Under the pieces are notes generated by a model, which was not told the DNA's origin, did not search any database, and worked only from the letters and a program-made list of their open reading frames with translations. A stretch of 52,968 bases of DNA, the filler included, from Basidioascus undulatus (taxonomy: Eukaryota), in assembly GCA_000826855.1 (NCBI GenBank). It is 3 parts of 3 records of this genome, joined end to end, with 100 filler letters (N's around TTAATTAATTAA, not from the genome) between each part and the next. Parts side by side here need not be neighbours in the genome. Positions count along the whole stretch, not along the records: positions 17,696 to 35,286 come from JTLS01000524.1; 2 more parts are not named here. The stretch is one strand, 5' to 3'. Shown here piece by piece: positions 20,939 through 26,945 of the stretch (positions within the stretch are counted from its first letter, which is position 1; each line of letters opens with the position of its first letter). The position numbers were made by a program, and so were the translations under genes.

Positions 20939-23616
20939 CTATGCGTGCTGCTCGACGTGCTCCTCCTCCACTGCGAATCGCTTCTCGCCCTTTGCGCCAG
21001 CAGGCAGAGCCGGTCCAGAGGACGTGGAGTCGCGCCGCGCCTTCTCGCCGATGTGGCTGGTCTGTTGGCGCCGGTACTCGCGCTCGGCGTCCCAGGAGAA
21101 AGGGCTGGAGGGCGAGAAAAGGACGTTGATCGACTCGAGAGGGCGGCGCGCAGTCTGCGAAAGCCATGGGGGGATTGTCAGATCCGAAGGGCTTGTGGTG
21201 GTAGATGAGAAAGACCCACCTCAGGGTAGAACACGTAGACAATCGGAATCCAGACGACATTGAGCGCGCCGAAGATGAAGAAGCCTTTGCTGCCGAGGGA
21301 GTCGAACATGACTGCAAGACATAGACTCGTTAGCAAGATCCTGTGAGTGAAAAAGCAGATTTAATCCTTACTCGGAACGAGGAGCGTGGCAGAGCCGACA
21401 CCCAATGCCCAGCCGGCGATACCGAAGCCGTTGCCCTGGACGCGCAGCTTGGTGGGGAAGACTGCAAGGGAGCCAAACGTTAGCATGGTTCTTTTTGGTG
21501 AAAACGGATGAGGATGGAAATATCTGGGAAGATGGTAGGAAAGGGCCAGTTGAGAGAAGAACTCCGCACTCACTTTCGGTAGGAACGATGAATGCAACGG
21601 AGCCCCACGTCATAGCGTAAGCGACGGTGAAGCTGTAAAGCCGGAAATTTCAGTCAGTAGTTGTTGAGAAAAACCCCATGCCGGTCGTCTTACATGAAAA
21701 GCATCGAGGCAGTGGCTGCCCCGTACTGCGACGCCTGGTCCGGGTTTTCGATAAGGCCAATGCCGAGGCCGCCGGCAATGAAGTTGACAGTGAGAAGAGC
21801 CGCAGAGCCGAACATGACGACGTTCTTGCGTCCAGCGACATCGACGTATTGCGCACAGAGCTAGAGAACGAAAGGCGTCAGCGGATGGGTGACATGTGGG
21901 GTTTGGCGCTGGAATGTGCTGCCTTACGATGGTGCCAAGAATGCCGACAGTGTTGGTCAGAGCCGAGAGCCAGCGCTGCTTGACGTCGGTGTATCCGGCA
22001 ACAGTGTAGAGAGTAGGAGAGTAGACAGTGATGCTGGATGAACGCGAAAGAGATCGGCGGTCACCGTATGCTGCCCACGAGATCACGGGGCTACTCACGC
22101 AACGACACCCGTCCACTGAGCCATAACCTGAAGCCAAACAGCCAGCCATGCACGACGACCAAGGTGGACCTCGTTCGTGAACCCGCCGAGGATCTGGAAG
22201 ACGTTGGGGGTGCCCTCTCGGACGGCAGCCGCCGCGTCGCAGATGTCGGCCCACTCCTCCTCAGTCTCGGGACCGGGTCCGCGACTGGCAGGATGTTTCC
22301 ATCGGTCAGAAGTTTCCTAGCCATTCAATATTAAGCCACTTACAGGTGGACCAGCACCTCATACGCCTCCTCGTGCCTGCCAACCTGCGCGAGCCAGCGC
22401 GGAGAGTCGGGCTAATCGATTTGGAAGAATGAGCATGCAGCGATCTTGGGTAGTTTGTTTGATTATAGAAACAACGTACGCAGATGTGCATGAAGCACGC
22501 GATGATCAGAGCAGGCACGCACTACGTGTCCGTAACGTCAGCCGCATGTTCGCGGAGGTTGATGTGAGGACTCATTGTCACCTGCAGGGCGAGCGGCAAG
22601 CGCCAGCGGAAAGAGCTCTCGCCATTCTCATGGAAGCTAGTACCAAAGCCGATCTGGAGACAGGCCGAATGAGACGTGAGCGACGACCGACACAAGACGT
22701 TGTCCAATCCCACTCACCCAGTAGCTGACAGCAATGCCGAGATAGTTGGCTGTACGCAGAGGAGGGTCAGACGCATTGAAGATGCTCCAAAGATCTCAAG
22801 GGCTTGCCGATGAAAACATAACAGATAGTACTATGCAGAAGCATTCGCGGGTCAGCTTTGCAGTATAGACAACAGGAACCCCTTCGAGACTTACGCGCCA
22901 CGGGAGTGCGCCTCCGCAGTCTCACCAACATATACGGGAACGACTGAAGTCAGGGTACCCGTTCCAAGACCGGTGATAACACGGGCGCACTGTCACCAAG
23001 TGGGGTAAGCTTCTACCTTTACAGGGAGCAGTGTCCTCGACGTACAAGCATCATATTCATATTTTGCGCACCCGCCTGCAGGGCGCCACCCAGGATGATC
23101 CACAGCGACGCAAAGATGCTGGAAAAGTCGGGTTCAGTAAGTCTCGCAGCCACCCGTAGCAACGTTGCTGATTGACTCACGTTCCCCTGATACGGCCAAT
23201 CTTGTCGGCCAGCATGCCACCAATGAAACAGCCAAACAACGCCCCGAAGTAGTATACCGCCACAATACCTGAGCAAAATAGAAGTCCACCGTCAGCTCAA
23301 GATATTGCATGTGTCTGGCGAGGCAAAGTACGCACCGCCCTCCTTCGTCCTGTCGCCCTCGATCCCAACCGTCCGAATGTAATCTGGCGACGGATTCACA
23401 CCACCCATCACACCTGGGAGAGCAGGGCCATGGCGTTAGGCTAATACGGCATAATACGCACGCAGAAAAAGCCGTACCTTGGTCATAACCCTCGAAGAAG
23501 ATTGCAGTGAGGGAGAATATTTGAATGAGGACATTCAGACTGCGTGGAGACAGCGTTTTCCACCAGCGGTGCTTGTTCTCTGTTGGCGGGAACATTGCGG
23601 GCGGCGTGCTTGACAT
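20939..23616 (-). CDS. Sugar porter family MFS transporter, multi-exon; candidate levoglucosan permease
   Basis: Spliced motifs FFEGYDQGVMGG, LADKIGRIRG, ARVITGLGTG...VPVYVGETAEAHSRG, FRWRLPLALQ, PDSPRWL, WLQVMAQWTGVVAITVYSP and VFPTKLRVQGNG. ATG at 23616, TAG at 20939-20941. Confidence 0.93.
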
Positions 23617-24709: not shown

Positions 24710-26945
24710 ATGGCTCCTCTCGACATCACCGTTCTGGGTATGAACTCGTAAGTCATTTGCTCAGCATAGACTTGCGAGCGTGGGCCGTTGGGCGGCGTTA
24801 CGTCGTGAAAGACGGCATCCTGGGCTCCGCTTTACGACGATGCTGACCGCACCTTTCCGCGGTACCAGGGGCACCTCGATGGTAATACTATTTGAGGTCA
24901 ACGTATTGGTTTGTGTTGAAACTGACCATCTTGTTACAGGACGGCATTGACTGCGCGCTCTGCCGTTTCCGTCAGGAGACCCCCGAGTCGCCCATGCACT
25001 TCGAGCTTCTCAAGGTACGCAGTGATCACCAACCTGTTCTCCACCCCTCCTTACACTTTCATTCTTCTGCAGTATGGCGAGATCCCCCTTGAGCAGACCA
25101 TCAAAAAGCGCGTCATGCGCATGATCCTCGAGAACAAGACCACGCCTGAGGAGATGTCCGAGTGCAACGTCATCCTCGGCGATACCTTCGCGAAGGCTGC
25201 CATCGAATTCGCGAAGGAGAACAACGTCAAGCTCGAGGACATCGACGTGATCGGCTCTCACGTAAGCCATTCTTTGGCTCTATTTGTTCATCTTCATGCG
25301 CTCAATCATCACTACGTTCCCCGTGACAGGGTCAGACCATCTGGCTCCTCTCGATGCCCCAGGAGGGCCAGACCAAGTCGGCTCTCACTTACGCTGAGGG
25401 TACCTTTATGGCTGCTCGGTACGTCCGCTTCTTGGCAGCTTGGATCTTCATTGTTGACCACAGCTTTTCTTAGCACCGGCATCACCACCGTCACCGACTT
25501 CCGTGTCTCTGACCAGGGTGAGCAACCGAACGACTTGCTGTATTCAATCAGCCGACGAGCTTATCTATATCGTTGTATTCAGCTGCCGGCCGTCAGGGTG
25601 CTCCCCTCATTGCCTTCTTCGACGCCCTTGTTCTCCACCACCCGACCAAGCTGCGTGCTTGCCAGAACATCGGCGGTATCGGTGAGTACAAACAAGGCGG
25701 CGAAGTGTCTTGTGTCTCTGACGCTCTGTCTGCAGCCAACGTCTGCTTCATTCCCCCGGACAACGAGGGTGGTGTTGACGAGTGCTACGACTTCGACACT
25801 GGGTGGGTGCTCCCTTCACAAGCAGGGTGTACCGCTGCTGAAACGAAATCTTATACAGCCCTGGCAACGTCTTCATCGATGCTGCTGTTCGTTACTTCAC
25901 CAACGGCGAGCAGGAGTACGACAAGGACGGTGCTATGGGCAAGCGCGGCAAGGTCGACCAGGAGCTCGTCGACGATTTCCTGAAGTACTTCTACTTCCAG
26001 CTCGACCCCCCGAAGACGTAAGTTCCACGCAGTTTGTATGATACACGTGCTCTGAGATTCTTTCGTTCGCACAGCACCGGCCGCGAGGTCTTCCGCGACA
26101 CCATGGCGTTCGAGCTGATCGAGAAGGGCAAGAAGAAGGGTGCGTGGATGATATCGCTTCGCTTCCCATGGGATCATGCTCATGCTCGGACTCACAGGTC
26201 TCTCTAACGACGACATTGTCGCGACCATCACCCGCATCACCGCCCAAGCGATCGTCGACCACTACCGCCGCTACGCTCCCCGCCAGGACATCGACGAGAT
26301 CTTCATGTGCGGTGGTGGCGCTTACAACCGTTCGTATCCTGACCAGTTCAATCCTGAAAATATTCGACTGAAAGATCTGATATTTTGCAGCCAACATCAC
26401 CGAGTACCTGCAGTCGCAGTACCCCAACAGTCCGTCGTGGCATAACGTTTCCTTTAGGTCCTTACAGCTAAATGTTGCCCCGTAACAGCCAAGATCTACA
26501 TGCTCGACCGGGCTGGTATCCCCGGTGGCGCGAAGGAGGCCATCACCTTCGCGTGGCAGGGTATGGAGGCGGTACGTGTCGCTCCTTTTCGGTGACAGCA
26601 TCCGATTGCTGAACTGGCCTCTGTAGGTCGTTGGCCGTTCGATCCCTGTTCCCACCCGCATCGAGACCCGCGAGCCTTGTGAGCCCTGAGTTCCTCCATT
26701 CAAATGCTGTAACGAGGCTGATCCTGATTCTCTTCAAGATGTTCTCGGCAAGGTCTCTCCTGGCAAGAACTACCGGAAGGTTCTCGGCAAGGGCATGGTC
26801 AGTCTTGGATCCGAATGCTTTATGGCCGACAAAGCTAACGTGACTGCGACGACAGGCCTTCGGTGCTGGCCGCGAGTCCCTACCGTGGGTGAAGGAGCTC
26901 GTCAACTACGTCGACGGCAAGGTCTTCGACAACAAGTGGAACTAA
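24710..26945 (+). CDS. LGK: Levoglucosan kinase (1,6-anhydro-beta-D-glucopyranose kinase; AnmK family), about 16 exons
   Basis: Spliced protein [25 protein letters not shown]...[12 protein letters not shown]...[48 protein letters not shown]...FDTGPGNVFID...[12 protein letters not shown]...CGGGAYN...[13 protein letters not shown]...LGKVSPG. This is nearly collinear with Lipomyces starkeyi LGK as I recall it. Ends DNKWN* at 26945. Confidence 0.95.

Follow-up and report, generated by a model that had tools for sequence, protein, structure and literature searches.

A levoglucosan kinase gene and a divergently transcribed sugar porter in Basidioascus undulatus: a conserved candidate module for fungal anhydrosugar uptake and activation

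Wildfire and the fast pyrolysis of cellulose release levoglucosan as their main sugar; how does it enter the fungi that use it? The question is raised by a 52,968-nucleotide stretch of DNA from Basidioascus undulatus (assembly GCA_000826855.1; three parts joined with filler, hereafter the window), in which a levoglucosan kinase (LGK) gene and a sugar-porter gene lie head-to-head. An earlier note on this DNA read the pair as an uptake and activation module, whose porter would import levoglucosan or a related 1,6-anhydrosugar, and knew of no dedicated fungal levoglucosan transporter that had been characterised. The literature searched, from which subscription journals were mostly absent, agrees on that point: it yielded no dedicated or native fungal levoglucosan transporter (which is no proof that none exists unpublished) and nothing on genes that are linked to LGK in fungi, and it contained the phrase "levoglucosan transporter" only for an E. 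coli study, itself accessible in part (PMC8753852). Fungi are reported, in the accessible portion of one paper, to use levoglucosan solely via a one-step kinase route, and the gene-neighbourhood analysis in that portion concerns the bacterial pathway only (PMC10066097). A 2022 study of engineered S. cerevisiae, likewise accessible in part, concluded that levoglucosan use is limited by both uptake and kinase activity, and mutated Gal2 to improve uptake (PMC9476349).

Both genes are intact, with the same start and stop coordinates that the earlier note had assigned them (Table 1). The LGK gene runs from an ATG at 24710 to a TAA at 26943-26945 in an unbroken reading frame, and its 15 introns are each GT-AG and 54-121 nt long. 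Its product is identical to the crystallised Lipomyces starkeyi LGK chain (P0004, PDB 4YH5 and related entries) at 330 of 427 positions (77%, with one 1-residue gap), to the R. toruloides enzyme (P0072) at 78% over 428 amino acids, and to ascomycete LGK proteins at up to 82%. At the position aligned to L. starkeyi residue 212, an Asp in the PDB chain that we take to be Asp212 in the numbering of that enzyme, the window protein also has Asp, and the general base of LGK is reported to be an Asp (PMC10570956, accessible in part). Exon 4 by itself matched 4yh5_A in a PDB search (E 2.6e-18), single exons or their enclosing open frames scored 20.3, 21.9 and 25.4 bits against PF03702 (cut-off 24, one above), and a search with a 52-aa exon returned 311 relatives, with PF03702 in 120 of the 120 listed. 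Judged from these alignments, the window kinase is an LGK orthologue of the AnmK family (PF03702), predicted to convert levoglucosan to glucose 6-phosphate in an ATP-dependent reaction. It differs from the L. starkeyi system in having 15 introns and in that its activity is predicted from sequence. According to the accessible text, the R. toruloides enzyme ranked first of six expressed in yeast, for growth on levoglucosan and for kinase activity alike (PMC9476349).

The porter gene starts with an ATG at 23616 on the minus strand and stops with a TAG at 20941-20939; its 16 introns measure 56-112 nt and are GT-AG in 15 cases and GC-AG in one. The GC-AG model for exon 6 was chosen because only that splice gives the length and sequence that orthologues show in transmembrane segment (TM) 5; an 8-nt micro-exon was dropped, as the orthologue TM5 demands five more residues, which the exon at 22830-22808 supplies. 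Exon 5 matches PF00083 at 25.9 bits (cut-off 22.3) and exon 13 at 18.1 bits. Searches with single exons (the 62-aa exon 11 against 5.8 billion proteins, the 55-aa exon 13 against 1.84 billion representatives) were without matches because these exons are short and divergent, and this is no sign of novelty. Relatives were instead collected with the 471-aa open frame of an orthologue, L071, which recovered 566 proteins at E ≤1e-20; all 120 of those listed carry PF00083 and PF07690, and the window porter is 50-57% identical to them over ~490-540 amino acids. The database names of these listed members are generic (general substrate transporter, STL1, hexose carrier). Conservation of LGK is unusually strong across fungal phyla, at 73-82% among the window, ascomycetes, Lipomyces and red yeasts, against 50-57% for the linked porter.

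How often do the two genes occur together? An alignment of 25 LGKs was used to scan metagenome contigs, giving 80 LGK loci, which were compared with the two spliced models by tblastn and which fall into 52 clusters at ≥95% LGK identity (single linkage). Linkage was measured from the LGK side, by seeking the porter near LGK loci, and a cluster was counted as informative if at least one of its loci had ≥1400 bp upstream of LGK, which excludes 22 clusters and 36 loci. Of the 30 informative clusters, 24 have a head-to-head sugar porter, as do 34 of the 44 loci counted as informative; one uninformative cluster, L048, shows the porter too. The gap between the tblastn match ends was 525-1322 bp (median 792 bp, 34 loci); in the window the divergent start codons are 1093 bp apart, just as the earlier note had it. 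By clade, the 24 head-to-head porters comprise 19 full genes of the window porter's clade (clade A), three fragmentary clade-A-like matches (L053, L054/55, L058) and two members of a sister clade B (L016, L030), assigned by TM7 motif and tree, so that 22 of the 24, three of them fragmentary only, belong with the window porter. The conserved linkage that the earlier note had proposed as a check is thereby borne out.

A FastTree phylogeny of 62 porter sequences (query-anchored alignment) placed the window porter as sister to all clade-A porters, outside clade B and a third clade, C. Reference relatives of the clade-A loci come from five ascomycete classes: Hyaloscypha (Leotiomycetes), Aureobasidium (Dothideomycetes), Chaetomium (Sordariomycetes), Pleopsidium (Lecanoromycetes), and Rasamsonia, Penicillium and Aspergillus (Eurotiomycetes). 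The window itself, intron-rich and outside the sampled ascomycete groups, is by this placement a distant lineage. Among reference genomes, LGK and porter have consecutive locus tags in Elasticomyces (LTR66_004500 and LTR66_004501), and they come from equal-sized contigs in Elasticomyces, Amorphotheca, Periconia, Glonium and Saccharata. When all 52,968 bases were compared with the loci by tblastx in 500-bp bins, the porter matched 25-42 loci per bin and LGK 73-80, and the other bins at most three; the pair is retained specifically, and the other window genes are not conserved in LGK loci. Recurrence in 24 of the 30 independent LGK lineages that are informative puts the pairing far beyond chance. 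We hold with high confidence that the two genes are functionally coupled, and the pair is, on this conservation, a real uptake-activation module with a predicted porter substrate.

Other porters also occur beside LGK. Clade-B porters (TM7 core QQWTG, TM10 Trp kept) lie near LGK in five clusters and three arrangements: head-to-head, as above; 2.2 kb upstream on the same strand (L041); and 8.2 kb downstream (L049-52/64 and L067/79), which looks like one linked porter having been replaced by another. In one lineage a clade-C porter follows LGK at 2 kb downstream, with both on one strand, and the fragmentary head-to-head clade-A gene of that lineage may be decaying or intron-rich. One tree member, P0197, whose label is the basidiomycete name Pseudozyma hubeiensis, falls within a group of Dothideomycete porters beside Periconia, which could reflect horizontal transfer or a contaminated assembly.

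What might the porter carry? Compared with glucose, levoglucosan is the bulkier molecule and lacks free hydroxyls at C1 and C6. The closest structures by sequence are STP10, XylE and GLUT1/3, of the same Pfam family; HMMER aligned clade member P0165 (residues 30-492) to the plant symporter STP10 in its glucose-bound form at E 1.6e-35. In STP10, according to the accessible text, Gln177 contacts the C1 hydroxyl and ring oxygen of glucose, Gln295, Gln296, Asn301, Asn433, Thr437 and Trp410 contact its C1-C4 hydroxyls, and Asn332 contacts its C6 hydroxyl (PMC6345825). Most of these residues are replaced in clade A, for which all column counts refer to the 120 listed of 566 proteins. The columns of Gln177, Asn332 and Trp410 hold Phe, Gly and Phe, respectively, in 120 of 120, and the window porter has the same residues; that of Gln295 holds Ala in 113 and Gly in seven (window Ala), that of Gln296 Ser in all 120 (window Gln), that of Asn301 Thr in 119 (window Val) and that of Asn433 Gly in 118 (window Gly). 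The canonical hexose-transporter set (Gln in TM5, Gln-Gln and Asn in TM7, Asn in TM8, Trp in TM10, Asn in TM11) is thus not found in the window porter, where Ala292 stands at the site of the first Gln of the canonical pair. The window porter contains the TM7 signature by which the earlier note had defined the porter clade, encoded across the junction of exons 11 and 12, but the Gln of its core, MAQWTG, is specific to the window: the clade consensus is Ser, and ascomycete orthologues read MASWTG.

Two of these replacements recall engineered ones. In the yeast study, as far as its accessible text goes, ten Gal2 residues within 4 Å of docked levoglucosan were mutated to alanine, and Q341A and W455A each gave ~tenfold higher levoglucosan consumption, which its authors attributed to the removal of steric barriers (PMC9476349). 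The Gal2 numbering (Q341, Q342, N346, N347, F350, and Y446 and W455 nine apart) fits the TM7 and TM10 motifs; by this motif spacing, Gal2 Q341 and W455 would map to the Ala and Phe of clade A, with window Phe404 at the position of STP10 Trp410 and Gal2 Trp455. Clade A, which is of the same family, would thus natively have Ala (Gly in 7 of the 120 listed) and Phe where the Gal2 mutants have alanine; in contrast to those mutants, it is natural, ~25% related to hexose carriers, and has most of the hexose-binding network replaced. The features of the pocket that are specific to clade A are the TM7 Ala-Ser and the TM10 Trp...Phe pattern only, and clade B retains Gln-Gln and Trp. The remodelled pocket would fit a substrate other than an ordinary hexose.

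A third gene accompanies the pair in many loci. Open frames of ≥90 aa were clustered from loci of ≥6 kb; besides LGK, the porter and antisense shadows, one further family recurs in many clusters, and its members carry Zn_clus and Fungal_trans domains (Zn2Cys6 regulator). With one full-length member as query, a single match was obtained in 35 loci (24 clusters), 27-43% identical to the query outside its own cluster, and the regulator was present in 20 of the 25 clusters with a locus of ≥8 kb. It lies beyond the porter or just 3' of LGK, in varying orientations, and accompanies clade-B porters as well. The same open-frame clustering found no other catabolic enzyme conserved in LGK loci.

The region between the genes is presumed to be a shared bidirectional promoter. 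K-mer counts over 24 intergenic regions (23 cluster representatives and the window) brought out tandem 8-bp units, CCGYKTAR, on the LGK-sense strand. The regions contain 37 sites, where 200 mononucleotide shuffles gave 4.4 ± 2.0 (maximum 11); in 29 representative loci, the 29,000 bp upstream of LGK have 38 sites and the other 420,462 bp have 28. These figures are descriptive, since the motif was discovered post hoc in the sequences that were counted. Of the 23 metagenomic representatives, 10 have arrays spaced at 8 or 16 bp, which lie 338-790 bp upstream of LGK. Such arrays are seen in L047, L056, L062, L074 and others, with up to six strict matches in L056. Zn2Cys6 proteins usually bind CCG repeats, and these arrays are a candidate operator for the linked regulator. 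The window's own intergenic region contains a CGG-rich direct repeat, 151-356 bp upstream of the LGK start codon and so inside the presumed promoter.

How would such a module work? The porter, probably a proton symporter like its relatives, would import levoglucosan or a very close 1,6-anhydrohexose, and LGK, whose gene lies 1.1 kb away on the opposite strand, would in a single ATP-dependent step open the anhydro ring and phosphorylate the sugar, giving glucose 6-phosphate, after which no further enzyme should be needed. The shared divergent promoter would switch on both genes at once; most ascomycete versions also encode a dedicated Zn2Cys6 regulator next to the pair, and this regulator would probably bind the tandem CCG-containing repeats. 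The one-step logic fits, because fungi are reported, in the accessible text cited above, to use the kinase route alone and no catabolic enzyme besides LGK is conserved in the loci. We lean, with modest confidence, towards levoglucosan or a near analogue as the transported substrate, and regard the porter as the best current candidate for a natural levoglucosan importer. It is an evenly balanced call whether, beyond this, fungi possess an undescribed, widely conserved levoglucosan regulon made up of the Zn2Cys6 regulator, an anhydrosugar-dedicated porter whose remodelled pocket is less polar, LGK and a bidirectional promoter with tandem CCGYKTAR operators. If they do, the porter clade would be the first native eukaryotic levoglucosan transporter, and the two-gene core would be older than the split of the window's intron-rich lineage from Pezizomycotina. 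The kinase-linked clade offers named, orderable candidates for the missing uptake step (e.g., from Aureobasidium or Penicillium), the regulator and operator candidates could provide an inducible switch, and the gene pair might serve as a marker for tracing fungi that use pyrogenic carbon after fire.

This layout has known counterparts. In S. cerevisiae MAL loci a permease and a maltase are divergently transcribed and joined by a Zn2Cys6 activator, and LAC12-LAC4 of K. lactis is also a divergent pair. As there, the genes of a porter and of the first catabolic enzyme diverge from one presumed promoter, and ascomycete LGK loci add a Zn2Cys6 regulator, but the enzyme here is an anhydrosugar kinase, not a glycosidase. 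The earlier note's comparison to these loci stands for the divergent pair, and the regulator of ascomycete loci completes the MAL-like layout there, but it does not extend to a regulator gene in the window. Bacterial lgd clusters, in the accessible parts of their descriptions, similarly group catabolic genes with a presumed importer and a regulator; however, they encode a dehydrogenase pathway, an ABC transporter and bacterial regulators, with no homology to the fungal parts (PMC10066097, PMC7676230).

Several observations weigh against levoglucosan import by a coordinately regulated module. A head-to-head porter is absent from six of the 30 informative LGK clusters, so that LGK can work without a porter neighbour. 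Two of the six, L024/25 and L034, have no porter at all in the flanks available; L041, L049-52/64 and L067/79 have the clade-B porters described above in other positions; and L073, whose kinase shows only 56% identity, has a distant porter at 4 kb. Some levoglucosan is already transported by ordinary hexose carriers. With regard to the pocket, Phe in TM5, Gly in TM8 and Gly-Gly in TM11 are common to clades B and C, and hence do not mark LGK linkage specifically; the alignment to STP10 is a distant one, with ambiguity in TM11; and the Gal2 positions were matched by motif spacing. The window porter matches the clade-A pocket signature (A-S...I-T in TM7, Y...W...F in TM10) at eight of 11 positions and departs from it at three (Q, V and V for S, I and T); given these changes and its 50-57% identity to the clade, its specificity could be different. 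Nor does the window share the regulatory features: its intergenic region has a single CCGYKTAR site, at 23743, and no array, and tblastn, a Zn-cluster regular expression and a profile search found no Zn2Cys6 regulator gene in the 52,968 bp, the lone weak tblastn match (E 6.6e-4) lying at 33400-33510 and the best profile match having an E-value of 1.

The LGK genes of L024, L025 and L034 form a separate branch, 72-74% identical to the window enzyme, with neither porter nor regulator in flanks of 10 kb on each side (L024, L025) or of 2.4 and 3.6 kb (L034); this branch may be a paralogue with another role.

Could the module be real but serve a natural substrate other than levoglucosan, either a different anhydrosugar or a compound akin to one (for example mannosan, galactosan or a 1,6-anhydro sugar made by enzymes), with levoglucosan a side activity of the kinase family? 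Conserved linkage implies a shared substrate without telling which, the pocket is merely not hexose-like, and it has been speculated that fungal AnmK-like kinases recycle anhydromuropeptides from bacterial cell walls (PMC10570956, accessible in part). However, the window kinase has 77-78% identity to two enzymes whose activity on levoglucosan has been measured, and an anhydromuramic acid route would require extra enzymes, none of which is conserved in the loci. We consider this alternative unlikely. More doubtful still is a porter for an ordinary nutrient, be it glucose, a polyol or a disaccharide, that stays beside LGK solely through a shared promoter responding to carbon starvation. The generic names of the listed clade members would suit such a role, as would the presence of clades B and C near LGK in some lineages. 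Yet the canonical glucose-binding network is missing from all 120 listed clade members, a dedicated regulator accompanies the pair, and the exchange of clade A for another porter beside LGK suggests that the transport step itself is under selection.

Yeast has sensors that resemble sugar porters, and linkage to a regulator raises the thought that the porter-like protein is a levoglucosan sensor (transceptor) and not a bulk importer. This is very improbable, since the gene model has no cytoplasmic tail longer than ~70 residues and keeps the transport motifs of the family, and no regulator gene lies near the pair in the window. That the adjacency reflects chance or simple inherited gene order without functional meaning, as any lone divergent pair might, is hardly credible for a pair found in 24 of 30 informative clusters, with relatives in five ascomycete classes and in a lineage as distant as the window, amid surrounding genes that are not conserved, and this reading is already contradicted by the tblastx and linkage counts.

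Table 1. Positions of the genes, pocket codons and intergenic elements of the window, and of the alternative porters in metagenomic LGK loci.
Feature	Sequence	Position	Strand	Description
LGK gene	window	24710..26945	+	16-exon model, 430-aa product
LGK exons 1-8	window	24710-24747, 24869-24881, 24940-25014, 25073-25261, 25330-25418, 25474-25517, 25583-25681, 25736-25802	+	
LGK exons 9-16	window	25859-26017, 26075-26139, 26198-26329, 26391-26429, 26489-26571, 26627-26678, 26739-26797, 26856-26945	+	
Sugar-porter gene	window	20939..23616	-	17-exon model, 541-aa product
Porter exons 1-9 (high to low)	window	23616-23478, 23413-23336, 23268-23181, 23118-23046, 22989-22895, 22830-22808, 22749-22718, 22653-22582, 22521-22480	-	
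Porter exons 10-17 (high to low)	window	22411-22344, 22284-22099, 22033-21928, 21860-21694, 21632-21574, 21461-21372, 21311-21220, 21154-20939	-	
GC-AG intron after porter exon 6	window	22750..22807	-	58 nt, donor GCAAGC
TM7 pocket codons	window	22101..22121	-	Ala292-Val298, core MAQWTG
TM10 pocket codons	window	21590..21619	-	Tyr395, Trp399, Phe404
Divergent intergenic region	window	23617..24709	.	1093 bp, read directly
CGG-rich direct repeat	window	24354-24376 and 24537-24559		23 nt, 78% identical, 183 bp apart
Chitobiase C-terminal and fibronectin-III domain protein	window	3086-4091	+	unrelated to sugar use
Arginine methyltransferase	window	6873-8496	-	unrelated to sugar use
Class II phenylalanyl-tRNA synthetase core	window	18283-19209	+	unrelated to sugar use
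PQ-loop membrane protein	window	49985-51296	+	unrelated to sugar use
Clade-B porter	L016	2-926		head-to-head
Clade-B porter	L030	123-1432		head-to-head
Clade-B porter	L041	6239-7842		
Clade-B porter	L049	19613-21156		
Clade-B porter	L050	10053-11197		
Clade-B porter	L067	9243-10779		
Clade-C porter	L053	13484-15059		
Clade-C porter	L054	13602-15207		
Clade-C porter	L055	4877-6482		
Clade-C porter	L058	13611-15216		

The window as a whole is eukaryotic, with abundant short introns and a G+C content of 51-63% in 2-kb segments. A wider sugar-catabolic cluster was considered for it and rejected, the neighbours being housekeeping genes (phenylalanyl-tRNA synthetase, arginine methyltransferase and PQ-loop protein). 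Among the metagenomic loci, an FAD protein resembling GMC oxidoreductases lies 5-8 kb from LGK in four clusters (L005, L041, L049, L050 and L067), three of which have a clade-B porter.

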